DNA of 17,880 bases from a virus, in IMG/VR virus record IMGVR_UViG_3300031994_000655, positions 1 to 17,880 of that record. One strand, 5' to 3'. Position 1 is the first letter of the stretch, and every line of letters begins with the position of its first letter. The notes under the pieces are model-generated. The model worked only from the letters and a program-made list of their open reading frames with translations. It was not told the DNA's origin and did not search any database. Shown here in pieces: positions 5,860 through 17,880 of the stretch. A program made the position numbers and the translations under genes.

Positions 5860-6339
5860 ATGGAATATGTAGTAGAATTTACTGAACTCATCAATGTCAT
5901 CAAGTGGGTTGCTGCACAGCAGAATCCTGTTCACTCGGTTTACGAGGGTGACGTCTATGAGAACTGGAATAGCGCTGAGGCCAAGTACGGTAGCGTCAAT
6001 GTAGGACTGCAATCCGTACAGTCGAATGACACGCTTACGACATACAGGTTCATCCTTTACTACGGAGACCGCTTGTTACAGGACAAGAGTAATGTCAATG
6101 CGATATACGCCGATGGAGTCAACGTACTCCAGACGATAGTGAACAACCTGAACAACGTTCACGGCGTGGAGGCTACCACTTCGGTTGAGTACACTCCGTT
6201 CGAACAGCAGTTCATGGACTACCTGGCTGGCGTATACGCTACTGTTGACGTTACCTGCGAGAGTGTTCTCGGTACCTGTGGAGACCTCTTGTCAACGGAT
6301 TGGCGCCTTGGTATGGCTTTACCTGCAACCCTTTCATAA
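5860..6339 (+). CDS. hypothetical virion protein
   Basis: 159-aa ATG ORF between the adaptor-like gene and the tail fibres. It is preceded by a canonical AAGGAGGTGA box (5847-5856). Confidence 0.6.
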   Translation: MEYVVEFTELINVIKWVAAQQNPVHSVYEGDVYENWNSAEAKYGSVNVGLQSVQSNDTLTTYRFILYYGDRLLQDKSNVNAIYADGVNVLQTIVNNLNNVHGVEATTSVEYTPFEQQFMDYLAGVYATVDVTCESVLGTCGDLLSTDWRLGMALPATLS

Positions 6340-6358
6340 AAACAAACACTAAACTACA

Positions 6359-8380
6359 ATGGCAAAGAAAAAACTTAGAGAGGACTACCGTGACGGCGAA
6401 CTCTACCACGGAGAAGACGTCAATGCTATCACCAAGCGTGTCAACGAACTTGATGATACCTCTGTTGATATTACCAATGTTCTGGAAGGGAAACAGGATA
6501 AACTGACCGCTGGTGCCAATATCACGATTGACGAGAACAATGTCATCAGCGCGAGGCCTCAGGACCTGAGTCAGTACGCGCTTTCGGCTGATGTGGCTAC
6601 CGAACTGGCCAAGAAGGCGGATGTAAGTGCGCTGACTGAGTACCAGGAGGCAACGAATGCGGCCATCTCTGCTAACACCAGGGACATCGAGATACTGGAC
6701 AACGGCAAGCAGGACAAACTGACTGCGGGTGAGAACATCACTATCGAGAACAACGTTATCTCGGCGCAGCAACCAGACATGAGTCCATACGCACTGAGTG
6801 CTGATGTAACAACCGAGTTGTCGAAAAAGCAGGATACTCTTACGGCTGGTTCTGGCATTTCTATCGTGAATAACGTGATAAGTGCACAGCAGCCTGACCT
6901 TAGTGAGTACGCAAAACAGTGCGATGTCATTCTGGTAGGTTCTGATATGGATGGAGACAAAATAGACTGGTCTCCTACTACAGGTATGACTACACCAGGT
7001 GTGTATCGTGCATTGCTGTACGTAGCAAACCAGTTAATCACTGACGAGATGATTGTTCAGTACTTCGGCAGTGTAGAAGAGTTCCTGACATATTGTTCAC
7101 AGAACGGCATCAAGGTAATAAGGGATGAGGCGCAATCTGGATACCTGGTTGTTGAGGCGGAAGTCGCAATGAGAATGACAGTAACCAACTACGTTGTTGG
7201 TAGTTTAGTGCAGTCATTCACTTATGACTACAGTTTTGCAAAGCACATGTATGAAAGGGTGTTCGACCAGAGTAGCAATTCGTGGTCTACCCAGTACTAC
7301 AGGTTCTTGTCAGGTAACGACTCCGATGATATAAGCAGCGCATTTAAGAGAGATGTTACATTCTCGCGTCGTAAGATAGAGGAACTCCTCGCTTCTAAAC
7401 AGAACAACCTTACTGCTGGAACGAATATCACCATCCAGAACGGGGTTATCTCGGCGCAGCAACCAGACCTCAGTCCGTACGCGTTAACGTCAGAGGTAGA
7501 AAGTGCTATTTCTCAAGTAGAAGAAAGCAAACAGGACAAACTCTCGGCAGGTACTAACATCACCATCCAGGACAACGTCATAAGTGCTACGGTACCAGAC
7601 GTTTCTGGAAAGATGAACAAGGTTGACTACGAGGTTGCCTACACGCTTCCTTCTGGTGCTATCGACCTGAGTCCGCTTAACAACGTGCTTACGCCTGGCA
7701 TCTACAACCTGAAAGTGAACTCATTCATCCCGAACACGTCTTACAACGGCGTTCTGATGGTAGGAAGACAAGGTAACTCCTTCTCGCAAGAGGTGGTTAT
7801 CTCAGGTTCCCAAACTCAGGTGCTGAAACGCGCTACCAGCAACAGTGGATCCACCTGGACAACGATGTACGCTGGCTGTCTGGCACACGTAAACGACAAC
7901 AGTGACGGGAATGGATACGGCGGTATCAACGAGACCTACTCGGCAAATAAGATTCTGACTCTCATTGACGAGAAACAGAACCAACTTACCGCTGGAACGA
8001 ACATCACTATCGTGGACGATGTCATCAGTGCACAACAGCCTGATTTAAGCCCGTACGCGCTTTCTGCTGATGTGGCAACGGAATTGTCCAAGAAGGTCGA
8101 TACAAGCGCTTACACGCAAGATAAGGCGGCAATGCAGGCCTCTATCTCGGCTAACACCACTGCTATAACTCAGTTGCAGCAGTCTAAGCAGAACAACCTT
8201 AGCGCTGGAACTGGTATACAGATTCAGAACGACGTTATCAGTCTGACTGGTTCGGGCGGTGCGATGATTGACGATACGACAACAGGTTCAACAACGGCCT
8301 GGAGTTCACAGAAGATTGTCAATGAGATGGGTATAGGCCTCATAGACCTTACCAACAGCGGCAACGCAATTCGATTCTAA
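6359..8380 (+). CDS. tail fibre protein, repeat-built with two inserted globular segments
   Basis: 673 aa. There are seven copies of a K-Q-x-x-L-[TS]-A-G-x-N-I-T-I-x-x-N-V-I-S-A unit, usually followed by QPDLSxYA. Repeat-free segments lie at about aa 190-340 and 410-525. The C-terminal motif is IDDTTTGSTTAWSSQKI. Confidence 0.8.
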   Translation: MAKKKLREDYRDGELYHGEDVNAITKRVNELDDTSVDITNVLEGKQDKLTAGANITIDENNVISARPQDLSQYALSADVATELAKKADVSALTEYQEATNAAISANTRDIEILDNGKQDKLTAGENITIENNVISAQQPDMSPYALSADVTTELSKKQDTLTAGSGISIVNNVISAQQPDLSEYAKQCDVILVGSDMDGDKIDWSPTTGMTTPGVYRALLYVANQLITDEMIVQYFGSVEEFLTYCSQNGIKVIRDEAQSGYLVVEAEVAMRMTVTNYVVGSLVQSFTYDYSFAKHMYERVFDQSSNSWSTQYYRFLSGNDSDDISSAFKRDVTFSRRKIEELLASKQNNLTAGTNITIQNGVISAQQPDLSPYALTSEVESAISQVEESKQDKLSAGTNITIQDNVISATVPDVSGKMNKVDYEVAYTLPSGAIDLSPLNNVLTPGIYNLKVNSFIPNTSYNGVLMVGRQGNSFSQEVVISGSQTQVLKRATSNSGSTWTTMYAGCLAHVNDNSDGNGYGGINETYSANKILTLIDEKQNQLTAGTNITIVDDVISAQQPDLSPYALSADVATELSKKVDTSAYTQDKAAMQASISANTTAITQLQQSKQNNLSAGTGIQIQNDVISLTGSGGAMIDDTTTGSTTAWSSQKIVNEMGIGLIDLTNSGNAIRF

Positions 8381-8400: not shown

Positions 8401-10749
8401 ATGCAATACGATTCAGATTACGAAGTAAGGTTGGCAACCCTTGCAGCCTTAGGTGGTAACACGGGTGTCACATACGATTCTGTATACGAGATTGACCTCG
8501 AAATCCTCCGCCTCACCGAACAAGGTGGGGGCGGTGGAGGCACAGGTACGTCCATCGACGATACAGTTACATCTACAACCAAGACCTGGAGTTCAAGCAA
8601 AATCAACAACGAACTTGCTGGCAAACAGGGTGCACTGACGGCTGGTGACAATATCACCATTACCAACGGTGTTATCTCTGCTACAGGCGGTGGTGCGGAC
8701 ATCGACGATACAGTTACATCTACAACCAAGACATGGAGTTCAAGCAAGATTAGCGGTGAACTCGACGGCAAGCAAGAGACCCTCACCGCAGGTACCAACA
8801 TTACCATCTCCAACAACGTTATCAGCGCCCAGCAGCCTGATTTGAGTGGTTATGCCACGAAGGACGAACTAACTGGTTATGCGACAGTCGAAAGTTTAAC
8901 GAACGGGTTAGCGCAAAAGCAAAATACGCTTACGGCTGGCACAAATGTAACGATACAGGACGGCGTTATTAGCGCTACTGATACGACATACACGGCAGGT
9001 AACGGTATATCCATCAACAACGGTGAGATTTCAGCAAATCTGACAGGTTACGCTACCAGCGAGGACCTGAATAACGGCCTTTCGTTCAAACAAGACACTC
9101 TGACGGCTGGTACTGGCATTAACCTCGTTAACTCAGTTATCTCTGCCGAGTCGGAAATCGACGACCTACACGCTGGTTCTGCAACTACCTACTCATCCAA
9201 CAAGATTATCGAGTTGACTCAGGGCCTTGGCTTCGACGTTGAGATAGTTCAGGCGCTTCCGCAGACAGGCGACGCACAGACCATCTACATGCTTCCGAAG
9301 GCTGACTCAGCGGCTACAGACGTGTATGACGAGTACATCTACACGAATAACGCCTGGGAGAAGATTGGTAACACGCAGACAGACCTCAGTCAGTACTACA
9401 CCAAGTCCGAGACGGATACGCTGCTTAACGGAAAACAGACCACGCTGACCGCTGGTACTGGCATCCAGATTGTCGATAACGTTATCTCTGCAACAGGTGG
9501 AGGCGGAACAGCGTTGTATGCTGGCACTAACATAAGCATCGTTGACAACAAGATTAACGCAAACGGATACAACTGGACTACTCATACGTATTATAAGCAA
9601 TTCAAGGTAGATTATGGCCTCAACACTGGTACACATGTTTTATTGGGATTTTCTAATTCATTCCCTTATACTGGATCCAGTTACACGTATTATAACCCAT
9701 ACGGAAGTGTAGCCATCGGTGTAAAGAATACTCTTGGTTATTCGTTTAATTCAGGTTCACAAATGTCCAGATGGTCAGCAATCGCAATGGGTTACAGCAA
9801 CTACGCTAGAGAAAAATCGTCTGTTGCGATAGGTACAGGATGTTTAACTGATGTTTGCGGGCAAGTTTCTATTGGTGCATTCAACGCAACACACGGAAGC
9901 GGTAATGATGACATGAAGACGTTTGAGTCAAGTGCAACAACTCTTATCGCATTTGGTGCTGGTACGTGCAATGGACTCCCATATACAAGGCCTGATAGTA
10001 GTAATATAAGCGGTATAAGTCGTAAAAATGCCATGGAGATTATGCGTAATGGTGACATCTACGTATACGGCGCAGGTGGATACGATGGTAAAAACCTCTC
10101 TGGTTCTACCCTCCAGCAACTCCTTGCAGGTGGAGGCGGAGGTGGCCAGTCTCTGAGTGCAGGTACGAACATCAGCATCCAGAACGACCTTATCAACGCG
10201 CTTGGCTATGAGTACGACTCTACGCTTAACGCAGTTAAGATTGGTGAAGGTCTGAACGCTTCTGGTAACAACTCAGTTATCGTTGGTCAGTACAACCGCA
10301 GTCGTACGACCTCTTCGGGTGATACTATCTTCGCGATAGGTGTAGGTACTGGAACTGACAACGCAAACCGCGTCAACGCTATCGAGACCCTTAGCAACGG
10401 TAAGACCTATGTCAACGGTGTAGGTGGTTACACGGGCCAAGGTATGGCTAACACTAAGCCGTTGGACGAGGTTATCAACGAGATTAGCACAGTTGCTAAC
10501 GCTGCGGCTACGATTGACGACTCAGCATCGTCTTCTACAAATGTCTATAGTTCTCAGAAGGTAGACCAGTTGCTGTCAGGTAAGCAAGCATCGCTTACCG
10601 CTGGAAATAACATTACCATCAGCAATAACACGATTAGCGCGGCTGGTAACGTTGCATCCACAAGCGTGTTTACCATCTGGTCTGGAACACAGGCACAGTA
10701 CGACGCCCTTTCGAGCCACAGCAACGACGTTCTTTACCTGATTAAGTAA
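8401..10749 (+). CDS. tail fibre / adhesin-like protein with YadA-head-like repeats
   Basis: 782 aa. There are nine copies of the same LTAG-NITI-NVISA unit and four IDDxxxxxxxxx[WY]SSxK motifs. Other elements are GGGGGG linkers, an LPQTGDAQTIYML..EYIYTNNAWEKIG block, and SVAIG/AIAMG/QVSIG repeats (about nt 9700-9900) reminiscent of trimeric-autotransporter head repeats. Confidence 0.8.
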   Translation: MQYDSDYEVRLATLAALGGNTGVTYDSVYEIDLEILRLTEQGGGGGGTGTSIDDTVTSTTKTWSSSKINNELAGKQGALTAGDNITITNGVISATGGGADIDDTVTSTTKTWSSSKISGELDGKQETLTAGTNITISNNVISAQQPDLSGYATKDELTGYATVESLTNGLAQKQNTLTAGTNVTIQDGVISATDTTYTAGNGISINNGEISANLTGYATSEDLNNGLSFKQDTLTAGTGINLVNSVISAESEIDDLHAGSATTYSSNKIIELTQGLGFDVEIVQALPQTGDAQTIYMLPKADSAATDVYDEYIYTNNAWEKIGNTQTDLSQYYTKSETDTLLNGKQTTLTAGTGIQIVDNVISATGGGGTALYAGTNISIVDNKINANGYNWTTHTYYKQFKVDYGLNTGTHVLLGFSNSFPYTGSSYTYYNPYGSVAIGVKNTLGYSFNSGSQMSRWSAIAMGYSNYAREKSSVAIGTGCLTDVCGQVSIGAFNATHGSGNDDMKTFESSATTLIAFGAGTCNGLPYTRPDSSNISGISRKNAMEIMRNGDIYVYGAGGYDGKNLSGSTLQQLLAGGGGGGQSLSAGTNISIQNDLINALGYEYDSTLNAVKIGEGLNASGNNSVIVGQYNRSRTTSSGDTIFAIGVGTGTDNANRVNAIETLSNGKTYVNGVGGYTGQGMANTKPLDEVINEISTVANAAATIDDSASSSTNVYSSQKVDQLLSGKQASLTAGNNITISNNTISAAGNVASTSVFTIWSGTQAQYDALSSHSNDVLYLIK
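8554..8747 (+). repeat. near-identical 47-nt direct repeat inside the second fibre gene
   Basis: atcgacgatacagttacatctacaaccaagacNtggagttcaagcaa occurs at 8554-8600 and 8701-8747 (46/47 identical, offset 147 nt = 49 codons). Both copies encode IDDTVTSTTKTWSSSK. Confidence 0.9.
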
Positions 10750-12040: not shown

Positions 12041-12520
12041 ATGAAGAGATTTTGGGCCTTTGTGGCCATTCTATTCATCCTTACAGGATGTGCAACGAAG
12101 AAATACGTCGACAAGAGTGTCATTGAGAACCATGTGGACAGCACATCGGTTGCCTCCAGCGTGACTCATAACGACGTTACGGAGACGACTGACAACGACA
12201 AGGTGAAGACGATAGTCATTACTGAGTACGTGACGGTGTATGATACCATTACGAAGTCCTATCCAGTGAAGAGTGTTACTGAGATACGCGAGGAAGACAG
12301 AAGCAAGGTGGTTAAGGAAGACAAGTCTGTATCCGCAGACTCTACGGCCACCGCTGTCGCCTCGGACAACTCGGTTAAGAACGACGTTACGGAAGAGAAG
12401 AAACAGAACGCCTCCAGTTACTGGTGGGTGTTTGTTCTCGGAATGGCGGTTATGCTGATACTCATCCTGGCCGTCAAACTCGGCTTAAAGTACGTCAAGG
12501 CGCACATCGGTATGGTATAA
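12041..12520 (+). CDS. lipoprotein with C-terminal transmembrane anchor (unimolecular-spanin-like)
   Basis: The internal ATG at 12041 gives MKRFWAFVAILFILTGC, a signal peptide with an L-T-G-C lipobox. The C-terminus YWWVFVLGMAVMLILILAVKLGL is a TM helix. The track start at 11975 adds 22 non-signal residues and is unlikely. Confidence 0.5.
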   Translation: MKRFWAFVAILFILTGCATKKYVDKSVIENHVDSTSVASSVTHNDVTETTDNDKVKTIVITEYVTVYDTITKSYPVKSVTEIREEDRSKVVKEDKSVSADSTATAVASDNSVKNDVTEEKKQNASSYWWVFVLGMAVMLILILAVKLGLKYVKAHIGMV

Positions 12521-12527
12521 AACAACA

Positions 12528-12551
12528 ATAGAGGCCCGTAGAGGCCCCTAT
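12528..12551 (-). terminator. stem-loop at the convergent junction, likely terminator of the minus-strand operon
   Basis: ATAGAGGCC (12528-12536) pairs with GGCCCCTAT (12543-12551), with one A-C mismatch and loop CGTAGA. On the minus strand it is followed by TTGTTGTTTT. Confidence 0.4.
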
Positions 12552-12661
12552 CGTGCGTTCTGGATGGACTTCTCATTTAGACAGTATAATTTATCGTCTG
12601 AGTGCAGTAAGTCCTTCCAGAACGCGTTTCTTTGAATTTGCTTCCCTATTGGAATGGGCAT
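12548..12661 (-). CDS. possible 37-aa micro-ORF
   Basis: ATG at 12661 (MPIPIGKQIQRNAFWKDLLHSDDKLYCLNEKSIQNAR). It is the last ORF before the junction hairpin. The longer track version (12548..12745) would overlap the upstream gene. Weak call. Confidence 0.25.
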   Translation of the reverse strand: MPIPIGKQIQRNAFWKDLLHSDDKLYCLNEKSIQNAR

Positions 12662-12713
12662 CAAAATCAGATATGGGTCTTGGTAGTGTAGTTGACCACC
12701 CAGGCCATTTTCG

Positions 12714-12974
12714 TTATTTCTTTGCCCGTTGTAAGCGTTCTGCAATAGCAGCCTTCTGTTCCTCGCTGAGAACCCTCGGTGTACGGTATGGATTCTTACC
12801 TAAGCGGAAGGGCCACAGGAAGCACTTGGTGCAGTTGCATTCCTCTACATCTTTGTCGCTTCCCGCGCAGCAATCCCATTTGCATTTGGCCCTGATGGCC
12901 TTAACTGGGTTCTGGTAGTACTGGAAGTTGCCGTTTTCGTCTGTGAATTGGTCTTCGTAATGTAGTTTTGACAT
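12714..12974 (-). CDS. small Cys-rich (zinc-ribbon-like) protein
   Basis: 86 aa with KCKWDCCAGSDKDVEECNCTKCFLWPFRLGKNPYR. This Cys cluster followed by an [FY]R.GKNP motif recurs in small phage and plasmid proteins of unknown function, as recalled. Confidence 0.7.
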   Translation of the reverse strand: MSKLHYEDQFTDENGNFQYYQNPVKAIRAKCKWDCCAGSDKDVEECNCTKCFLWPFRLGKNPYRTPRVLSEEQKAAIAERLQRAKK

Positions 12975-13108
12975 AGTTGTGATGTATTAGTGGTTAATAA
13001 ATCCGTTTGTTGCCGTTTCTTGCCCATTCCTAGCGCATCTCAGCGCATGAACGGTGTTGAGTGGCACAATCCTCCACCCGACTTGCGTTCGTGTCTTAGA
13101 ACGCAGTT

Positions 13109-13294
13109 TTATAGGCCGAGTTTCAATTTGAGTTGGTTCAGCATCCGTTCCTTAATCAGCGCGTCTTCGTCTATTGCCGCGAGTCCAGGGTGGTATGCTG
13201 TCTGCACCTCAATGGTGATGCGTTTGTCTGTTGCTTCGATTTCGTCATGGTACTCGGTGAAGGTTAGTACCATGGTCTTGTGCTTGAATTCCAT
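13109..13294 (-). CDS. hypothetical small protein (61 aa)
   Basis: ATG ORF in the same orientation and tight spacing as its neighbours, with balanced composition. Confidence 0.55.
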   Translation of the reverse strand: MEFKHKTMVLTFTEYHDEIEATDKRITIEVQTAYHPGLAAIDEDALIKERMLNQLKLKLGL

Positions 13295-13322
13295 TGTGTC
13301 TCATTGTGTTCTTCGATTTAGG

Positions 13323-13511
13323 TTAGTACTCTCTTCTAGGTTCTCTGAGGGTGTACGGGCATTGTGTTTTGAGTTCCCAGGCCTGTCGGTAGACGCTGAT
13401 GAGTTCTCTCTGTATGGTAGCCGCAGCCTCTTCCAGGTTCTTGATGCGTGTGCATAGTTGGTTGTAGGCAACCTGGTAGTCCTTTTCGGTTACTAGTGGT
13501 GTGTTCATCAT
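13323..13511 (-). CDS. hypothetical small protein (62 aa)
   Basis: ATGATG start 6 nt after the stop of the upstream micro-gene, with a helical-looking sequence (YNQLCTRIKNLEEAAATIQRELISVYRQAWELK). Confidence 0.55.
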   Translation of the reverse strand: MMNTPLVTEKDYQVAYNQLCTRIKNLEEAAATIQRELISVYRQAWELKTQCPYTLREPRREY

Positions 13512-13517
13512 GTTCTC

Positions 13518-13685
13518 TTATTTTCCGATTAGTCCTTTCCAGTACGTAACCAGGTTCTTGTCCAGTTTCTCTGGCATAGTCTCAACGATGAAGGTGAGTC
13601 TGTCTGGGTCTCTTGTACAGTTGTACTTGCGGCTTAATCCGTTGGCAAGTGATTCCAACTGGCTTTTGCTTAATGGTGCGTTCAT
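13518..13685 (-). CDS. hypothetical small protein (55 aa, below ORF-track cutoff)
   Basis: Hand translation from ATG 13685 gives MNAPLSKSQLESLANGLSRKYNCTRDPDRLTFIVETMPEKLDKNLVTYWKGLIGK, ending at TAA 13518-13520. It fills an otherwise empty gap in the packed operon. Confidence 0.5.
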   Translation of the reverse strand: MNAPLSKSQLESLANGLSRKYNCTRDPDRLTFIVETMPEKLDKNLVTYWKGLIGK

Positions 13686-13705
13686 TTATCTAACTGTTTT
13701 AGGTT

Positions 13706-13840
13706 TTAGAGGCCAAGTAAGGCCTTGTATAGGTCCGTCAGTGCTTTCGGCGGACGTGAGTCGGCTGTGTAAACCTCAATGGCGTTCAGCCAGTCGATTG
13801 GTTGCGGACGCAGGTCCTTGGGATTGATAGCAGCCATCAT
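13706..13840 (-). CDS. hypothetical small protein (44 aa)
   Basis: Internal ATGATG start of track ORF 13706..13924 (MMAAINPKDLRPQPIDWLNAIEVYTADSRPPKALTDLYKALLGL). It overlaps the stop of the upstream 33-aa ORF in an ATGA arrangement. The alternative is the full 72-aa ORF. Confidence 0.4.
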   Translation of the reverse strand: MMAAINPKDLRPQPIDWLNAIEVYTADSRPPKALTDLYKALLGL

Positions 13841-13938
13841 GCTTTCCGTTTGCGGTTTATCTCTCGGCAGATGAGTTGCATCTCTTCCTTGTTCGCGCCG
13901 CGTGCTATGGTGGCTTCCATCCATTCGTTATGTGTCAT
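13837..13938 (-). CDS. hypothetical small protein (33 aa)
   Basis: ATG at 13938 lies 12 nt downstream of motif copy A. Hand translation gives MTHNEWMEATIARGANKEEMQLICREINRKRKA, ending at TGA 13837-13839. This reads more protein-like than the overlapping MDGSHHSTRREQGRD frame. Confidence 0.4.
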   Translation of the reverse strand: MTHNEWMEATIARGANKEEMQLICREINRKRKA

Positions 13939-13950
13939 GTCTATCGGTGT

Positions 13951-13985
13951 TCTACCTATAAATAGTATCAAAGTTGAAAAAGTGA
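13951..13985 (-). promoter_or_regulatory. conserved promoter-like motif, copy A
   Basis: The minus-sense sequence is TCACTTTTTCAACTTTGATACTATTTATAGGTAGA, 29/35 identical to copy B. It sits in the 45-nt gap between two minus-strand genes. Confidence 0.55.
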
Positions 13986-13991
13986 TTGGTA

Positions 13992-14633
13992 TTACTTGTT
14001 GTTTACCTTGCGCCAGTACATAACTACGTTCTCAGGTATGAGTTCTCCCAGTTTAACCCATGCATTGTGCCTTGCCTCATCGTCTGTTAATGTCTTTCCG
14101 TGCTTCTCGGCTAATCTGAATACTCTCTCCAAGGTGTCACACTGTTTGTGTGCTTCACAGCCTTTACTCTGCTTGTTGCCTGTGTATGCTGGATTGATGA
14201 TGATTGAGTTCTTCTCGTTGTCCTTGGCTATCTTCCTGCAATTCTCGATACTCTCGTTCAGCGCCAAGTCAGCCAGGGATACTATCATGTCTACTGGATA
14301 ACCTCCTTCAATCTCAGTAAAGCACGATGCATCAATGTACATGTTATACAGGAGTTCGTCAGGAGTAATCTCTGGCTTGATAGCACGATGTATCATTCCG
14401 TATTCAGTCAGTTTCTTTGTCCTCCATGCTATACCGTACTTGCATGTTGGGATGATGTAAGGCATTCGATAGAAGTCATTTGTGATAATTAGCCATTCCA
14501 TATCACCGAAATCGACCTTAGTCTGCTTTACTATCTCGTAGCCGCGATGTTCAAATGAAGCCATCAACTCTTCTACTGTCGGTCTTAGCATAAGACTCTC
14601 TACTAACTCTTTGTCAAATAAGTTCTTTTCCAT
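13992..14633 (-). CDS. hypothetical protein (213 aa)
   Basis: ATG at 14633 (MEKNLFDKELV). The track TTG start at 14678 lies inside the -7 box of the predicted promoter. No family was recognised. Confidence 0.7.
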   Translation of the reverse strand: MEKNLFDKELVESLMLRPTVEELMASFEHRGYEIVKQTKVDFGDMEWLIITNDFYRMPYIIPTCKYGIAWRTKKLTEYGMIHRAIKPEITPDELLYNMYIDASCFTEIEGGYPVDMIVSLADLALNESIENCRKIAKDNEKNSIIINPAYTGNKQSKGCEAHKQCDTLERVFRLAEKHGKTLTDDEARHNAWVKLGELIPENVVMYWRKVNNK

Positions 14634-14675
14634 GGTTCTATTGCTTGTTTGTGGTTTATACTTTGATTCTGGATG

Positions 14676-14706
14676 CAAAGATACTACTTTTCTATGGATC
14701 TTGCAA
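14676..14706 (-). promoter_or_regulatory. Bacteroidota-type promoter (TTGC-N19-TATCTTTG)
   Basis: The minus-sense TATCTTTG (14683-14676) matches the TAnnTTTG -7 consensus exactly. TTGC (14706-14703) lies 19 nt upstream, and the ATG at 14633 is 42 nt downstream. Confidence 0.5.
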
Positions 14707-14720
14707 GTATTTTGGTCAGT

Positions 14721-14830
14721 TTTCCGTTTTGTTCACTCATTGTTTAGTGTATCACTCTCTTCTTTATTATAGTTTATAAAGTATATACTATGTATATATC
14801 TTATAAAAATTAGAGTGAACAAAACGGAAA
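14721..14830. repeat. 18-bp perfect inverted repeat flanking a 74-bp AT-rich spacer
   Basis: tttccgttttgttcactc (14721-14738) is the exact reverse complement of gagtgaacaaaacggaaa (14813-14830). The spacer contains gtatatactatgtatatatc and ttataaaaatta. It lies immediately 3' of the replication gene stop (14833). Confidence 0.85.
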
Positions 14831-14832
14831 GT

Positions 14833-16566
14833 CTATTTGGAACGTAGTTGATTGAGTATCTCATAAGCCTTAGTCTTCTTACAACCAAGAATGTTCATAA
14901 CGGTTTTAGCACTCATGTCAGGAGTTATGGAATTCATAAGTTCCTCTTCACGTTTCTTTGATTCATCAATATACCCAAGCCTAACCAAGGATTTATAAAC
15001 GGTTGTTCTGGCTGGTACACCACAAGGTTTGCCGTAGAACGTAGTGAACTTTACACCATTCAAATAGTACTCCTGGAGTTTTTTATGTACATTGTCAACC
15101 GTTACTTCCTTTCCCTCAGATAAGAGTTCCTCTGCTGCGGCTGACACGTAGTCGTTAGAGTTTGACTTCTGCAATCTCTTGTACTCAACCCTCTTGTCTC
15201 CTTCAACTGAGTTGTTTATGTACACCTCTTTTGACTTGAAGTGTTCCTTCATGTAGGCTATCATGTCATCCATTTCGATACTCATGGTCCAATAGGTCTT
15301 CTCTAGCAACGCCGTTCTGGTTATAGCACCGTCGGAATTGTCAATCATGTTTATGCTGCACCAAATGAGAGTGAGTAACACATCATCCGCGCAGTGAGTA
15401 GGAGAGTTATACCTGGCCTTTGTTGCGATAGTAGGCAATACCTTAACCCTGCGCTTGTCTCCATCCGAGTAAGGGACGTACTTGCCTCCCTTGGCTATCT
15501 TGGACTTGATTCTCGAATCAAACCCATCCTGCGTACAGGTGAACGTCGAACCAGTATCCTGAACAGGTGCAAGGCACGGCTTCCATCCAAGCATCTGGAA
15601 ATGGCGTAAAACTTCACTGTCATCAGCCGTCTCAGACAACTCTCTCTGTAACTCAGGAGAGAACATACCTGTAAAATCCTTTCCTTGGCCGTTTCCTTGC
15701 GTTCTGGCGGGCTTTCGGTTCACACATGGGTAATCCTTCCTCCACTGTTCCAAATCAGCCTCAGAGACGTCGTAAAAAGCATCGAACGACATAACCTCGA
15801 CAATAGGCAGTCTGGAAGTGGCTGTAGTTCCGAAGCATCCATCGAACATCTCAAGCCATCCAGATACATCCTCATCCTTGTAGATGTTCTCTTTAATCCA
15901 TTTGATGCCGCCCTTCTTGTCGTCACCCAGGTGTAACTTGTTCTCTTCTGGATCCATGTATGCGTAGTACTGAATCGTACGTCCAGCGGGAACTCCGTTG
16001 CCGTGCATCATCTGGTTCTTATGCTTGCTACAGTGGTCGAGTTCCACCCCGATAACCTTCTCTACCTTGTCAGCCAGGTACTCTGCGAATGCGCAGCAGT
16101 TCTCAACTCCTTTGATAACCTCCCTGGTCACATATACAAGGCGGTAGCGACAGATAGGCGTTGTAACCGTCTCTCCGTCTTTCTCCTCCGCAAGCAGGTA
16201 CGTCATGTGGCTTGTGGTGGTGTAGGCTAGTGTCGGATAAATGTCCTGGTTATCGTCGAATTCGCTTAACAGGCTGCCAAGAGTCTTGTGCTTGATATCA
16301 AAGTCGATGTCAATAAAGAAGAACTGCGTGCCAACGAAGTTATCCGTGGTACGTTCCGAACTTGTCATCTTGTTTTTCGTGTAAATTCCTGCCAATGAAC
16401 GACCCTCTTGGATGCAGCGCACCATGAATGCGAGGTTTGCGTTGCAGTACGTGGAGAAACTCATCTCCCAGTAGTCGGCAGTACCCTGAATGGGTTTGTG
16501 GTCATAGCCCTTGTCTGTTACTGATAGGCTTATGCCACTGAAGTTTGTGTCTCTGAATTGCTTCAT
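14833..16566 (-). CDS. primase-polymerase-like (AEP-type) replication protein with C-terminal HTH
   Basis: 577 aa. QFFFIDIDFD (D86/D88) resembles the AEP DxD motif I. LAYTTTSH and ELDHCSKHKNQMMHG resemble the following motifs of VirE-N/BT4734-like primases as recalled. The C-terminal SAKTVMNILGCKKTKAYEILNQL looks like a helix-turn-helix. Confidence 0.55.
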   Translation of the reverse strand: MKQFRDTNFSGISLSVTDKGYDHKPIQGTADYWEMSFSTYCNANLAFMVRCIQEGRSLAGIYTKNKMTSSERTTDNFVGTQFFFIDIDFDIKHKTLGSLLSEFDDNQDIYPTLAYTTTSHMTYLLAEEKDGETVTTPICRYRLVYVTREVIKGVENCCAFAEYLADKVEKVIGVELDHCSKHKNQMMHGNGVPAGRTIQYYAYMDPEENKLHLGDDKKGGIKWIKENIYKDEDVSGWLEMFDGCFGTTATSRLPIVEVMSFDAFYDVSEADLEQWRKDYPCVNRKPARTQGNGQGKDFTGMFSPELQRELSETADDSEVLRHFQMLGWKPCLAPVQDTGSTFTCTQDGFDSRIKSKIAKGGKYVPYSDGDKRRVKVLPTIATKARYNSPTHCADDVLLTLIWCSINMIDNSDGAITRTALLEKTYWTMSIEMDDMIAYMKEHFKSKEVYINNSVEGDKRVEYKRLQKSNSNDYVSAAAEELLSEGKEVTVDNVHKKLQEYYLNGVKFTTFYGKPCGVPARTTVYKSLVRLGYIDESKKREEELMNSITPDMSAKTVMNILGCKKTKAYEILNQLRSK

Positions 16567-16628
16567 TTGTTAATCTTGCGTTAACGTTTAGGTTTGTTAC
16601 TAACACAGTTAGCATGTGTAGAGCCGAT

Positions 16629-16775
16629 TTAGGATGGCTGGTCCTCTTTTCTCACTGAGGTGACGTAAACAATCTCTCCTCTGCGTTCTGCTTTCTTGTA
16701 GCCGTTCTGGCCAAGTGCCTGCTTTGCCAATTTACGAGTCTCATAGAAGACTCCTGTAGGTGTGTGAACTAACAT
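16629..16775 (-). CDS. hypothetical small basic protein (48 aa, below ORF-track cutoff)
   Basis: ATG at 16775 lies 16 nt after motif copy B. Hand translation gives MLVHTPTGVFYETRKLAKQALGQNGYKKAERRGEIVYVTSVRKEDQPS, ending at TAA 16629-16631. Confidence 0.5.
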   Translation of the reverse strand: MLVHTPTGVFYETRKLAKQALGQNGYKKAERRGEIVYVTSVRKEDQPS

Positions 16776-16791
16776 ATCTGTCTAGTGTGTT

Positions 16792-16826
16792 TCTACCTAT
16801 AAATAGTACGATGTTTCAAAAAGTGA
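16792..16826 (-). promoter_or_regulatory. conserved promoter-like motif, copy B
   Basis: The minus-sense sequence is TCACTTTTTGAAACATCGTACTATTTATAGGTAGA. It is identical to copy D over 31 nt. Confidence 0.6.
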
Positions 16827-16846
16827 TTCAAAGTCGTTCTCGACGG

Positions 16847-16878
16847 CAAAAGTACACATAATTTCTCAAAGAAGCAAA
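16847..16878 (-). promoter_or_regulatory. Bacteroidota-type promoter P(-): TTTG-N20-TACTTTTG
   Basis: The minus-sense sequence is TATTTGCttctttgagaaattatgtgTACTTTTGC, an exact match to the -33 TTTG and -7 TAnnTTTG consensus with a 20-nt spacer. It points toward motif B, the 48-aa ORF and the replication gene. Confidence 0.6.
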
Positions 16879-16891
16879 TAAACCGCCTCCA

Positions 16892-16926
16892 TCTACCCTA
16901 TAAATAGTACCATGTTCCAGAAAATA
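16892..16926 (-). promoter_or_regulatory. conserved promoter-like motif, copy C (degenerate 5' half)
   Basis: The minus-sense sequence is TATTTTCTGGAACATGGTACTATTTATAGGGTAGA. The core GTACTATTTATAG is intact, with one extra G. No convincing ORF follows before the P(-) promoter. Confidence 0.45.
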
Positions 16927-16959
16927 AAAACTGGACCACATCATCACGACGTTGTCCAG
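16921..16959 (-). terminator. intrinsic terminator after the 36-aa ORF
   Basis: In minus sense, CTGGAC pairs with GTCCAG (16959-16954 and 16936-16931). An inner ACGTC/GATGT helix has one G-U, with a 5-nt loop. The structure is followed by TTTTTATTTT (16930-16921). Confidence 0.6.
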
Positions 16960-16997
16960 CCAATAACTAAAATCATAAATAACATGGCCAGGTAAGG

Positions 16998-17108
16998 TCA
17001 AAGGCGCTTGCGTATGGCCTCCCTGATAGGATGGAAAATGAGATTTCCGATAGTGCTGATGGTAATGAATACGTTCAGCCAGTAGTGTTTCATAGTCTTG
17101 TTCTTCAT
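16998..17108 (-). CDS. 36-aa single-TM membrane peptide
   Basis: ATG at 17108 lies 18 nt after motif copy D. Hand translation gives MKNKTMKHYWLNVFITISTIGNLIFHPIREAIRKRL, ending at TGA 16998-17000. The hydrophobic core is flanked by basic residues, and a terminator follows 38 nt downstream. Confidence 0.5.
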   Translation of the reverse strand: MKNKTMKHYWLNVFITISTIGNLIFHPIREAIRKRL

Positions 17109-17126
17109 GGTTGTTCTTGTTTGCTT

Positions 17127-17160
17127 TCACCTATAAATAGTACGATGTTTCAAAAAGTGC
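17127..17160 (-). promoter_or_regulatory. conserved promoter-like motif, copy D
   Basis: The minus-sense sequence is GCACTTTTTGAAACATCGTACTATTTATAGGTGA. Confidence 0.6.
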
Positions 17161-17165
17161 AGCCT

Positions 17166-17217
17166 ATCGGGTATAAAACCGACCGATTTCTTGAAGATTG
17201 CCTCCAATCGGGTATAA
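17166..17217 (+). repeat. two 11-bp direct repeats ATCGGGTATAA in the divergent control region
   Basis: Copies lie at 17166-17176 and 17207-17217 (41-bp offset). A third partial copy, ATCGGGTA, is at 17283-17290. CCGACCGA recurs at 17179-17186 and 17494-17501, with CGACCGA at 17300-17306. Confidence 0.7.
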
Positions 17218-17242
17218 TATAAGTGGATCCGCCATCGGATTA

Positions 17243-17274
17243 TTTGCACAATCCAGAAAATATGTGTACTTTTG
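17243..17274 (+). promoter_or_regulatory. Bacteroidota-type promoter P(+): TTTG-N20-TACTTTTG
   Basis: The sequence is TATTTGCacaatccagaaaatatgtgTACTTTTGC. TTTG is at 17243-17246 and TACTTTTG at 17267-17274, with a 20-nt spacer. It is about 28/35 identical to the inverted P(-) element. Confidence 0.6.
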
Positions 17275-17280
17275 CATCTG

Positions 17281-17485
17281 GAATCGGGTAGCAACCTTTC
17301 GACCGAAGATTTTTCATGCCGTGACATACGTTAAAACTCCATATATCCGCTACCCGTTCCCTTACTGACATATCTGTCAACCAATATACATTGCGTCTGA
17401 CTTGTTCCCTACCATAGGATAAGGGGAAAAGTTGTTCTAGTTTCGAGAGTAACTCCGTTGAGATAACGTGGTTACTCCTTTTTTT
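17281..17485 (+). ncRNA. candidate ~205-nt structured non-coding RNA (class unknown)
   Basis: It is bounded by the P(+) promoter and an intrinsic terminator. The only + strand ATG (17315) opens a 2-codon ORF. Helices visible by eye are CGGGTAGC 17285-17292 with GCTACCCG 17349-17356, TGACA 17366-17370 with TGTCA 17375-17379, and CTTGTTCCCT 17401-17410 with AGGGGAAAAG 17422-17431 (one mismatch). The 5' end is a prediction. Confidence 0.45.
17447..17485 (+). terminator. rho-independent terminator
   Basis: GAGTAAC (17447-17453) pairs with GTTACTC (17471-17477). An inner CGTT/AACG helix surrounds loop GAGAT. The stem is followed by C and seven Ts (17479-17485). Confidence 0.7.
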
Positions 17486-17520
17486 GTACCTATCCGACCG
17501 AAATCGGTTCACACCCCCGT

Positions 17521-17554
17521 CACTTTTCCAAAGTACGTACTATTTATAGATAGA
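17521..17554 (+). promoter_or_regulatory. conserved promoter-like motif, copy E (only + oriented copy)
   Basis: The plus-sense sequence is CACTTTTCCAAAGTACGTACTATTTATAGATAGA, 28/34 identical to copy B. It faces the sigma-like gene, whose ATG is 145 nt downstream. Confidence 0.55.
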
Positions 17555-17699
17555 AGCCACTCCAAAAGCCTTCTAGTGAGAAATCCGTTCTAAGGCGCTA
17601 ATACTACCTCAGTGGTACAATTACACTGCCGAACGATTAAACACTCCCAGAACGAAGGAAACGGGGCAAGAACAAAGAAATAGACTACACTTAGATAAC

Positions 17700-17880
17700 A
17701 TGGAAACAAAGAACAACAGAGAAGAGAGGCGATTGAACCTCATCAAAGAGGCCAAGACAGGTAATGCCAACGCAGGCAACCTGCTGGTCAATGAATATAA
17801 GGACTTCATACACTGGGCGATGTGGACTACAATAAAGCCTCACATAGAATTTGTTAGGCATGTCCTTGACGAACTGGAGT
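17700..17880 (+). CDS. sigma-70/ECF-like factor, N-terminal 60 codons (3' end outside window)
   Basis: This ATG ORF is open to the window end and is absent from the track. It reads METKNNREERRLNLIKEAKTGNANAGNLLVNEYKDFIHWAMWTTIKPHIEFVRHVLDELE. The LIKEAKTGNANAGNLLVNEYKDFI segment resembles the region-2 opening (..A..GD..A...L...Y..) of ECF-type sigma factors. Confidence 0.45.
   Translation, partial: METKNNREERRLNLIKEAKTGNANAGNLLVNEYKDFIHWAMWTTIKPHIEFVRHVLDELE

Follow-up and report, generated by a model that had tools for sequence, protein, structure and literature searches.

A repeated, gene-oriented 34-bp element of rumen Bacteroidales phages is probably a second, non-canonical class of core promoter

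The window, a stretch of 17,880 nt, is part of the circular 30,845-bp genome of a rumen Bacteroidales phage, which we put together from contigs in ENA, JGI and Logan with >99.9% identity. Judged from its sequence, the host of the phage is a member of the Bacteroidota. Searches of GenBank phages by megablast and tblastn, with the region, the terminase and the 577-aa protein as queries, found nearest relatives no closer than 26% identity. The copies of the repeated element in the window (A-E) and the features around them are as follows.

13951..13985, minus strand: copy A (CACTTTTTCAACTTTGATACTATTTATAGGTAGA), in the 53-nt gap between a 213-aa gene and a 33-aa ORF; 19 nt from TATTTAT to ATG
14676..14706, minus strand: canonical-type promoter TTG-N20-TATCTTTG, upstream of the 213-aa gene
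16792..16826, minus strand: copy B; 23 nt from TATTTAT to the ATG of a 48-aa ORF
16847..16878, minus strand: canonical Bacteroidota promoter TTTG-N20-TACTTTTG, between copies C and B
16892..16926, minus strand: copy C, in tandem, upstream of the canonical promoter and copy B, with no ORF of its own
16998..17108, minus strand: 36-aa ORF downstream of copy D, membrane-like and conserved
17127..17160, minus strand: copy D; 24 nt from TATTTAT to the ATG of the conserved 36-aa membrane-like ORF
17243..17274, plus strand: canonical Bacteroidota promoter TTTG-N20-TACTTTTG, rightward, heading a predicted ~205-nt non-coding transcript
17445..17485, plus strand: intrinsic-terminator hairpin (GAGAGTAAC...GTTACTCC) followed by T7 (seven T), ahead of copy E
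17497..17510, plus strand: palindrome ACCGAAATCGGTTC, found only upstream of copies E and F; candidate regulator site
17521..17554, plus strand: copy E; sigma gene 145 nt downstream
17700..17880, plus strand: 5' part (regions 2 and 4) of a 253-aa sigma-70-family gene that continues beyond the window

The core of the element, RTACTATTTATAG, has five exact matches in the window (13956-13968(-), 16797-16809(-), 16898-16910(-), 17131-17143(-) and 17537-17549(+)), one in each of the five copies that the original prediction had placed at the coordinates above, and there is an extra site with two mismatches at 14785. In shuffled sequence 0.73 matches are expected, and none of 200 shuffles gets to six. 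Alignment of copies A-E returns the ~34-nt consensus of that prediction and bears out the identity of copies B and D over 31 nt. The prediction had also proposed a search of the remaining genome, which yields one more exact core match, copy F (19409-19421(+) of the genome), and the late operon's first gene has its ATG 18 nt further on; the ~25-kb structural module is free of exact core copies. All six copies lie within one 5.5-kb regulatory/early region, and all six are intergenic in a genome of which just 9.4% is non-coding (P about 7e-7). Each points the same way as the next gene, so the orientation claimed for five copies extends to the sixth. The start codons follow the end of the 34-nt motif at the distances first reported, namely after 12, 16, 18 and 145 nt for copies A, B, D and E; measured from the 13-nt core, the values for A, B and D are 17, 21 and 22 nt. 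Copy C has a spacer 1 nt longer than that of the other copies and shares sequence with a 100-aa ORF call that is doubtful; what is conserved at that place is the 36-aa ORF, whose 34-aa homolog in the relative L226 also follows a motif copy, with the orientation flipped. The leftward operon below copy B comprises the 48-aa ORF, which comes first, and a 577-aa ORF.

When relatives are compared, what remains of the motif is TTTTT(G/C)AA-N9-TATTTAT-W-R-N-T-A-R-A, with the ATG usually 12-26 nt on. The spacer is fixed at 9 nt, the distance from the end of the T-run to TATTTAT is 12 +/-1 nt, and G is replaced by C in the TTT(G/C) block at about half of the sites. This family element heads both homologous and non-homologous genes in no fewer than nine genomes of related phages. 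Specifically, L210, the sigma of which is 86% identical, has six copies, two of them preceding genes unlike those in this phage, and diverged copies with the same block spacing occur in L226, L211, L213, L223, L219, L215, L218 and L222; the genes headed by such diverged copies include a conserved 225-aa-family gene and divergent operons. A logo of 28 sites from 10 genomes has conserved AA at -11/-10, A at -2, T at +10 and A at +13, all of them columns independent of the search pattern. Repeats found de novo in L223, L226 and L213 include the motif, set within modules of 60-99 nt, the upstream parts of which are A/T-tract, UP-like sequence. A sigma-based locus search of IMG/VR and a 225-aa-family search of the genome collection each gave no match.

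Fixed orientation and tight start-codon distances would also suit an RNA-level element in the 5' leader of read-through transcripts, for instance an enhancer of translation, a translational operator or a site of RNase processing. We consider this very improbable. The next ORF is 100-145 nt away from copies C and E, the region from which copies D and E point away from each other offers neither of them a promoter further upstream on its strand, and a terminator stands ahead of copy E. Moreover, as signals in DNA the T-run block and UP-like tracts are readily understood, and we found no conserved RNA structure and no Rfam match (a scan of 12500-17880 gave zero).

Promoters of the Bacteroidota primary sigma factor (sigma-ABfr) consist of a -33 TTTG and a -7 TAnnTTTG (PMC7366714). 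The motif fails to fit TTTG-N19-21-TAnnTTTG, as had been predicted, and three matches to the canonical type lie close by. The -7 box TAnnTTTG is absent from all six copies in every register, the best being TATTTATA with 4/6 specified positions; nor is there a -33 TTTG at 19-21 nt, the distance from TTT(G/C) to TATTTAT being 11-12 nt, about 8-10 nt too close. Canonical TTG-N19-21-TAnnTTTG promoters are present in these phages and before inserted IS1595 transposases, and the perfect canonical sites that coexist with the motif in the same phage form a visibly separate class. The two have in common an AT-rich bipartite element close upstream of Bacteroidota genes that lack a Shine-Dalgarno sequence (none is found in these phages), and a T-run ending in G or C with an AT-rich block (4/6 of the -7 box), whereas the motif keeps TATTTAT and the following T..A instead of TAnnTTTG. 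Both are probably read by the same core enzyme. The match of TATTTATW to TAnnTTTG at 4/6 specified positions is a poor fit to the host primary-sigma consensus and counts against a host reader.

By inspection, no register of the motif fits the E. coli-type -35/-10, ECF, sigma-54 or IHF consensus; for an ECF reading, TGAAAC and CGTA are only 2 nt apart. Taking the T-run for the -33 element and TA(R)A for the -7 box is disfavoured because the start would then fall inside the ORF at many viral-contig sites, where the ATG is 12 nt past TATTTAT. Sigma genes and promoters of the Bacteroidota type show the host to be bacterial, for which reason an archaeal BRE/TATA reading was rejected.

The 3' part of the motif matches the T7 promoter at 14/23 positions including TATAGG-AGA (P about 0.009 against shuffles). 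This resemblance, pointed out in the original prediction, holds, and like T7-class promoters the motif is a conserved, oriented stretch of ~23 nt with TATAG close to where transcription presumably starts. The reader proposed on its strength, a phage RNA polymerase, does not. The prediction had suggested looking for an RNA polymerase gene outside the window; none was found in the complete 30,845-bp genome with Pfam, PHROG or PDB, and the proteins of 1141, 741, 673, 782 and 392 aa have no RNA polymerase match in any of the three. Homologs of the 1141-, 741- and 392-aa proteins share no conserved D.D.D motif, and the sole DMDGD lies in the 673-aa protein, a repetitive tail fibre. Two-barrel virion RNA polymerases of the crAss/N4/P23-45 type have a catalytic DxDxD in a large virion protein, which at the sequence level was not found here. 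Furthermore, the T7 similarity is not kept in relatives, falling to 7-12/23. A promoter for a single-subunit (T7-like) or cryptic virion RNA polymerase of the phage is thus exceedingly improbable and as good as refuted.

The other reader originally proposed is the sigma-like factor at 17700. The 253-aa protein is a genuine sigma-70-family member with regions 2 and 4, and word-indexed and exhaustive searches found one close relative, with other homologs at most 36% identical. The predicted terminator at 17445..17485, a hairpin kept in a diverged relative with compensatory stem changes, ends the RNA of the canonical rightward promoter before copy E, and copy E is the sole promoter-like element between the terminator and the sigma gene. 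With the terminator standing between that promoter and copy E, transcription of the sigma gene would depend on a motif copy. The six copies may accordingly be phage-sigma-dependent promoters: early transcription from the canonical promoters by host RNA polymerase would pass a leaky terminator and yield sigma, and sigma would read the motif, amplify itself from copy E and turn on the remaining units, among them the late operon from copy F. We regard this cascade as possible, though rather unlikely. In 3/3 sigma-carrying phages the sigma gene is immediately preceded by a motif copy, which is the signature also of a positively autoregulated sigma and counts against a host reader. The same is true of the canonical promoters in the control regions, which among the loci sampled coexist with the motif only in sigma-carrying phages; this fits a cascade from host promoter to sigma to motif. 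The sigma family is, moreover, an orphan one, in keeping with a private specificity.

The distribution of the motif argues the other way. A sigma HMM run over the relatives, several of them partial contigs, gave matches in this phage, in L210 and in L226, and in no other. Seven relatives have the motif but no sigma in the retrieved DNA, an absence that in several rests on partial contigs; they include L213, L223, L219, L215, L218 and L222, where motif and spacing are the same. For L213 the 10 kb upstream of the terminase, including the whole control region, contains the motif and neither a sigma gene nor a canonical promoter. The sigma of L226 is only 24% identical to that of this phage, and the same motif adjoins both. 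Across the relatives, some with partial contigs, the motif does not co-occur with sigma as a sigma-dependent promoter would. The region-2/region-4 geometry of sigma-70-family holoenzymes is fixed, and the centre-to-centre block spacing of about 17 bp would probably be off it. Finally, this type of motif is widespread in unrelated viral contigs and before Bacteroidales chromosomal genes. The phage's own sigma factor, although real, is not necessarily the reader, and on this point the original prediction found no support.

In IMG/VR, the exact core 14-mer and a gapped pattern with 17 specified bases gave singleton chance matches only. A scan of IMG/VR with the family pattern gave 119 matches, with an ORF start at most 60 nt downstream in sense at 97 and in antisense at 15. 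The motif-to-ORF distances have a sharp peak at 12-16 nt, and 8/85 leaders are SD-like. In a collection of species-representative genomes, an ORF starts 10-35 nt downstream of 13/19 Bacteroidales matches versus 12/102 matches in other taxa (Fisher p = 7e-7; p = 3e-5 with identical loci collapsed); the family pattern is thus far commoner ahead of genes in Bacteroidales MAGs than in other taxa. The neighbours of the Bacteroidales chromosomal matches are housekeeping genes or integrases, and zero proteins are common with this phage. A point against host reading is that these matches may represent cryptic phage remnants, inactive in uninfected cells. In the portion of the B. thetaiotaomicron TSS table that was covered, TATTTAT occurs at variable positions and no bipartite family member is present.

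The motif could instead be the binding site of a phage or host regulator (repressor, activator or nucleoid protein) and not itself a promoter. CTATTTATAG is an imperfect 4+4 palindrome, copy B lies at about +16 to +50 relative to the canonical leftward promoter, and further candidate operators cluster close by. On the other hand, the 34-nt element is asymmetric and strictly oriented with the gene (6/6 here, 97 vs 15 in viral contigs), and its distance to the start codon is fixed. Copy D, copy F and the operons of L213 lack any further upstream promoter candidate, and the motif stays clear of the canonical -33/-7 boxes. An operator, the alternative already considered in the original prediction, is therefore improbable.

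From the repetition, position, orientation, conservation and distribution of the 34-bp copies, we infer that they are probably core promoters, with a start site close downstream, of a second, non-canonical class used by Bacteroidales phages and most likely read by host RNA polymerase. The host enzyme is the probable reader because relatives lacking sigma, many phage contigs and some chromosomal genes carry the two-block element. The original prediction is hence supported and extended in its promoter-like, non-canonical part, and not in either of its proposed readers.

In the literature we found no description of a T5(G/C)AA-N9-TATTTAT motif. Phage sigma cascades and autoregulated alternative sigmas are well known, for example SPO1 gp28 and ECF sigmas. 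The sigma-70-family gene of this phage, preceded by a repeated motif, is reminiscent of them, but in the relatives the motif does not co-vary with the presence or identity of sigma. The T4 late promoter, TATAAATA, is read with gp55/gp33. The family sequence TAT-W-R-N-TA equals TATAAATA exactly in L218, L271 and L299, whereas the octamer in this phage is TATAGGTA, and the motif is much longer, with an obligatory upstream block. No gp55/gp33-like protein was detected among the small proteins scanned, such factors being hard to detect. A reverse-strand T4-like TATAAATA reading was rejected on orientation.

Middle promoters of the crAss-like phage phi14:2 and strong Bacteroides phage promoters of the P_BfP1E6 type are read by host RNA polymerase (bioRxiv 10.1101/2020.03.07.982082; 10.1101/2025.03.18.644028). 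Similarly to the motif, they have extended multi-block sequences and UP-like tracts of A/T, and their leaders are very short or missing. They differ in that phi14:2 P070, P075, P108 and P110 and the phage B124-14 promoters, whose sequences we read, are canonical TTG-N17-21-TAnnTTTG without T5(G/C)AA-N9-TATTTAT; the element does not correspond to the tripartite motif of those four phi14:2 promoters. B. thetaiotaomicron also has a non-canonical class, promoter motif 2 (PM2), with boxes near -10 and -30 and an elusive recognising factor (PMC7366714, PMC11697453); as a non-canonical host promoter class it resembles the motif, a comparison made by description only. In the GibS promoter, CTCTTTTTAATCTGTTATATTTAT|G(+1), T5AA, a spacer and TATTTAT stand right before the mapped start (PMC7366714, PMC11697453), with 9 nt from the end of the T-run to TATTTAT, compared with 12 in the phage motif.

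In the model that we favour, in which the host enzyme reads the motif, the users would be an uncultivated lineage of ~25-31-kb rumen/gut Bacteroidales phages together with other Bacteroidota-type phages. The promoter would consist of the T-run block TTTTT(G/C)AA, a 9-nt spacer, TATTTAT and then W-R-N-T-A-R-A. TATTTAT would serve as an AT-rich -10/-7-like melting element, and transcription would start 0-7 nt past it. The resulting leaders would be short and A-rich, without Shine-Dalgarno sequences, of 12-24 nt here and down to 5-12 nt in AT-rich relatives. Copy D would head the small membrane-protein gene, copies C and B a leftward replication-type operon in tandem with a canonical promoter, copy A a small-gene cluster, copy E the sigma gene and copy F the long late/structural operon. 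Host holoenzyme would act in a recognition mode unlike -33 TTTG / -7 TAnnTTTG, and the phage sigma, which lies in an accessory cassette flanked by copies E and F, would not be needed for the motif in general.

More tentatively, T5(G/C)AA-N9-TATTTAT might be a widespread second promoter architecture of Bacteroidales/Bacteroidota RNA polymerase, read by the primary sigma in an alternative mode or by another host factor, possibly that of PM2. Many phages and small orphan chromosomal genes would use it to make mRNAs with very short leaders, and orphan phage sigmas might be takeover factors that read, or compete for, these sites.

Known promoter recognition in Bacteroidota is almost solely that of the -33/-7 consensus. 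If active, the motif would give a handle on a further recognition mode of the Bacteroidota transcription machinery, and it would mark transcription units in uncultivated gut and rumen phages. Strong orthogonal parts for engineering Bacteroides and Prevotella are scarce, and an active motif would be a candidate promoter part. In this phage, the canonical promoter, the terminated small RNA, the palindrome, the non-canonical promoter and the orphan sigma cassette stand side by side in a natural arrangement in which temporal control could be dissected.

The repeated motif was confirmed. All five copies of the original prediction carry the 13-nt core RTACTATTTATAG exactly, about 34 nt are alignable across them, and a 31-nt stretch is identical between copies B and D. 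Searching for the core beyond the window identified a sixth exact copy, F.

13956 (−): exact core, copy A
16797 (−): exact core, copy B
16898 (−): exact core, copy C
17131 (−): exact core, copy D
17537 (+): exact core, copy E
Genome position 19409–19421 (+): exact core, copy F; ATG of a 225-aa gene 18 nt downstream

With up to two mismatches allowed, six core matches are observed versus 0.73 expected, and none of 200 dinucleotide shuffles reaches six. All six copies are intergenic in a genome of which 9.4% is non-coding (P about 7e-7), and all six, including the new one, aim at the next gene, as had been claimed for the five. The claimed gaps from the 34-nt motif to the ATG were reproduced (12, 16 and 18 nt for copies A, B and D, and 145 nt for copy E). 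The one ORF call that copy C overlaps, of 100 aa, is doubtful; a 36-aa ORF is the conserved gene at that place. The 100-aa ORF (16828–17130, minus strand; a pipeline call) has a GTG start within motif D and is uncalled in the related phage contig L210, while the 36-aa ORF (16998–17108, minus strand) is hydrophobic, lies in a different frame and has a 34-aa homolog in a second related contig, L226.

The window was placed by exact-protein look-ups on an ENA contig, a JGI contig and Logan contigs. The joined contigs give a circular genome of 30,845 bp, with 0–4 mismatches between sources; the ENA contig (30,986 bp) exceeds this by a 141-bp assembler overlap. A late, structural operon of ~25 kb runs rightward (PD-(D/E)XK-like 225-aa gene, small genes, terminase, tail and head genes), and a block of ~4 kb runs leftward (48-, 577- and 213-aa genes and small ORFs); there is also a divergent control region. 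Scanning of the complete circular genome found no motif copy in the structural module. The interval separating the 577-aa gene from the 213-aa gene holds 74 nt of AT-rich sequence, in which palindromes overlap and a 2-mismatch core match lies at 14785, enclosed by the two arms of a perfect 18-nt inverted repeat (TTTCCGTTTTGTTCACTC at 14721–14738 and GAGTGAACAAAACGGAAA at 14813–14830); this region (14721–14830) may be a terminator or a structure resembling an origin.

Terminase homologs define a large family of uncultivated phages of 25–31 kb, for which no cultured relative was found. The motif is kept, in diverged form, across these relatives. L210, whose σ is 86% identical, has six exact copies, two of which precede genes other than those in this phage. 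L226, with a terminase 90% identical and a σ at the corresponding position only 24% identical, has five copies; one lies 20 nt ahead of the σ start, and one travels with a small membrane-protein gene in flipped orientation. Diverged versions, for example TCACTTTTTGAAACTTGCAAGTATTTATAGATAGAA and GTCGTTTTTCAAAGTGCAAACTATTTATAAGTAAA, precede the 225-aa-family gene and divergent operons in relatives L211, L213, L223, L219, L215, L218 and L222. The logo of 28 sites from 10 genomes reads TTTT(T)nAA-N7-A-n-TATTTAT-W-R-n-T-n-n-A, with 12 ± 1 nt from the end of the T-run to TATTTAT. Unsupervised repeat finding in three relatives returned the motif as the top repeat, in 60–99-nt modules with phased A/T tracts upstream.

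A phage single-subunit RNAP had been proposed as reader, on the basis of likeness to the T7 promoter. The likeness itself holds, with 14 of 23 consensus positions matched (P about 0.009), but is not conserved in relatives (7–12 of 23); the GTAC and TATAGGTAGA parts from which it arises are phage-specific. The search for an RNAP gene was negative: the 1141-, 741-, 673-, 782- and 392-aa proteins have no RNAP match in Pfam, PHROGs or PDB sequences, and no DxDxD is conserved among homologs, the single DMDGD lying within a repetitive tail-fibre protein. Because the complete genome has no RNAP gene and the T7 resemblance is lost in relatives, a T7-like RNAP is refuted as reader, and the element is not a member of the T7 class. 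The 1141-aa protein, encoded outside the window upstream of the 673- and 782-aa genes, has Ig/BACON-like repeats at its C-terminus and resembles tail or receptor-binding proteins. The 673-aa (6359–8380) and 782-aa (8401–10749) proteins have common internal repeats of tail-fibre type.

The other proposed reader was the σ-like factor.

Window 17700–17880 onward (L121, this phage, 7145–7906, minus strand): σ gene; L226 counterpart at 1951–2718

The 253-aa protein is indeed a genuine σ70-family member (Sigma70_r4, 29.3 bits, cut-off 24.1; TIGR02937, 52.9 bits, cut-off 42.9; PHROG 351, E = 4e-22), with a region 4 alignable to the RpoD and SigA structures. Against a library of about 15 billion proteins, clustered to 1.8 billion representatives, it comes out as an orphan, with one relative at 86% identity and all others at or below about 36%. 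Its role as motif reader is weakened, as the motif occurs in relatives in which no σ was detected: among the fetched loci, some of them partial contigs, only this phage, L210 and L226 are positive with the σ HMM. Specifically, the 10 kb upstream of the terminase in L213, including the whole control region, contain no σ and no canonical promoter. The element is not demonstrably σ-specific, and we lean modestly toward its being read without the phage σ. The σ cassette (σ and a 169–194-aa partner) is confined to some members of the phage lineage and evolves very fast (terminases 90% but σs only 24% identical between two phages). A very AT-rich, non-coding stretch of ~950 bp with many short repeats (L213 6585–7532) lies between two divergent motif copies of this σ-less relative and is a possible replication origin.

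The good matches to the host consensus claimed nearby are real: the full TTTG-N19-21-TAnnTTTG is found three times versus 0.26 expected.

16847–16878 (−): canonical Bacteroidota promoter, full-consensus match
17243–17274 (+): canonical Bacteroidota promoter, perfect, full-consensus match
17445–17485 (+): intrinsic terminator, strong hairpin plus T7 tract, closing a ~205-nt non-coding stretch
17166–17176, 17207–17217, 17283–17293: ATCGGGTATAA twice and ATCGGGTAgcA once, flanking the rightward canonical promoter
17497–17510 (genome 19369–19382 for the second copy, L121 about 6224–6237, minus strand): palindrome ACCGAAATCGGTTC, exactly two in the genome
L210 11788–12861, L226 3741–4814, L211 121–1182, L213 2080–3192: IS1595-family transposases with their own canonical promoters

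A TTG-N20-TATCTTTG site is also present upstream of the 213-aa gene. Because the phage and the IS1595 transposases inserted in relatives share the canonical promoter type, and start codons have no Shine-Dalgarno sequences, the host is a Bacteroidota. Three of these four IS1595 insertions share one intergenic region, immediately upstream of copy F.

Rightward, the order is canonical promoter, ~205 nt of non-coding sequence, terminator, palindrome, copy E and σ gene. A diverged relative has the same order from promoter to motif, and the changes in its terminator stem are compensatory. Because the motif lies downstream of the terminator in a conserved order, it is an independent signal, not part of the canonical promoter. 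The promoter-RNA-terminator unit (17243–17487, plus strand) is kept in L210 and also in L226, where its body has diverged and the terminator changes are compensatory; its ~205-nt transcript, which has no Rfam match, is a candidate phage small RNA. ACCGAAATCGGTTC precedes only copies E and F, ~10 nt from the 34-nt motif and 26 nt from the core. These two copies and their palindromes flank the σ cassette, and related palindromes lie ahead of L226 motif copies; the palindrome may be a regulator site, or the remnant of a duplication by which the cassette came in. All four plus-strand AATCGG sites in the genome are within control regions, and the ATCGGGTATAA/AATCGG sites are candidate operators.

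As originally claimed, the element does not fit the canonical σABfr promoter, both of whose defining features fail (PMC7366714). Reading the T-run as −33 and TA(R)A as −7 (N21) is disfavored; the start would fall within the ORF where the ATG is 12 nt past TATTTAT. Since this happens at many sites, TATTTAT(W), matching TAnnTTTG at 4 of 6 specified positions, is favored as the −10/−7-like element. From this we infer a geometry in which transcription would start 0–7 nt past TATTTAT, initiation may take place at the conserved T..A and the T-run would lie at about −30 to −23. The Bacteroides thetaiotaomicron GibS promoter, CTCTTTTTAATCTGTTATATTTAT|G(+1), with an experimentally mapped start (PMC7366714, PMC11697453), looks similar, with 9 nt from T-run end to TATTTAT versus 12 in the phage element. 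The middle promoter of crAss-like φ14:2 and the strong phage promoter of B124-14 type, both read directly, are canonical, unlike the element (bioRxiv 10.1101/2020.03.07.982082; 10.1101/2025.03.18.644028). The comparison covered the σABfr, φ14:2, B124-14, T7 and σ-specific classes.

IMG/VR and a species-representative genome collection were searched for the family pattern TTTTTSAA-N9-TATTTATWRNTARA. Among the 119 IMG/VR matches listed, an ORF of at least 40 aa starts within 60 nt downstream in 97 sense versus 15 antisense cases, the distance from TATTTAT to the ORF start peaks sharply at 12–16 nt, and only 8 of 85 leaders have SD-like strings; several contigs carry 3–6 copies. Matches in the genome collection are mostly chance, in AT-rich taxa. 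An ORF starts 10–35 nt downstream in 13 of 19 Bacteroidales matches versus 12 of 102 elsewhere (Fisher p = 7e-7; p = 3e-5 once four identical loci are collapsed). No proteins are common to the Bacteroidales loci and this phage; the loci have housekeeping genes as neighbors (tRNA synthetase, D-Ala-D-Ala ligase, a PorX-like regulator, peptidase M13) or adjoin integrases. Four downstream genes have the N-terminus xxIRLTES(Q/E)L in common; these (Bacteroidales MAG loci L238, L274, L299 and L329; 92–186 aa) are solitary amid housekeeping genes, with a motif-family copy directly upstream. MAGs of Prevotellaceae and Alloprevotella carry, after a phage-type integrase, a motif copy and a small basic protein of NUMOD-like type.

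L259 3961–3991 and 6955–6985: motif copies, 29 nucleotides identical
L242 about 3175: motif copy

Judging by these integrase loci, the motif's host range is likely Prevotellaceae. Position, orientation, conservation and distribution strongly support the promoter interpretation, and the element is very probably a promoter. Its distribution in IMG/VR and Bacteroidales argues for reading by the host's machinery rather than by a phage factor specific to the lineage. The best account of the element is a promoter class of Bacteroidales phages with a non-canonical architecture, which the host RNA polymerase probably reads.
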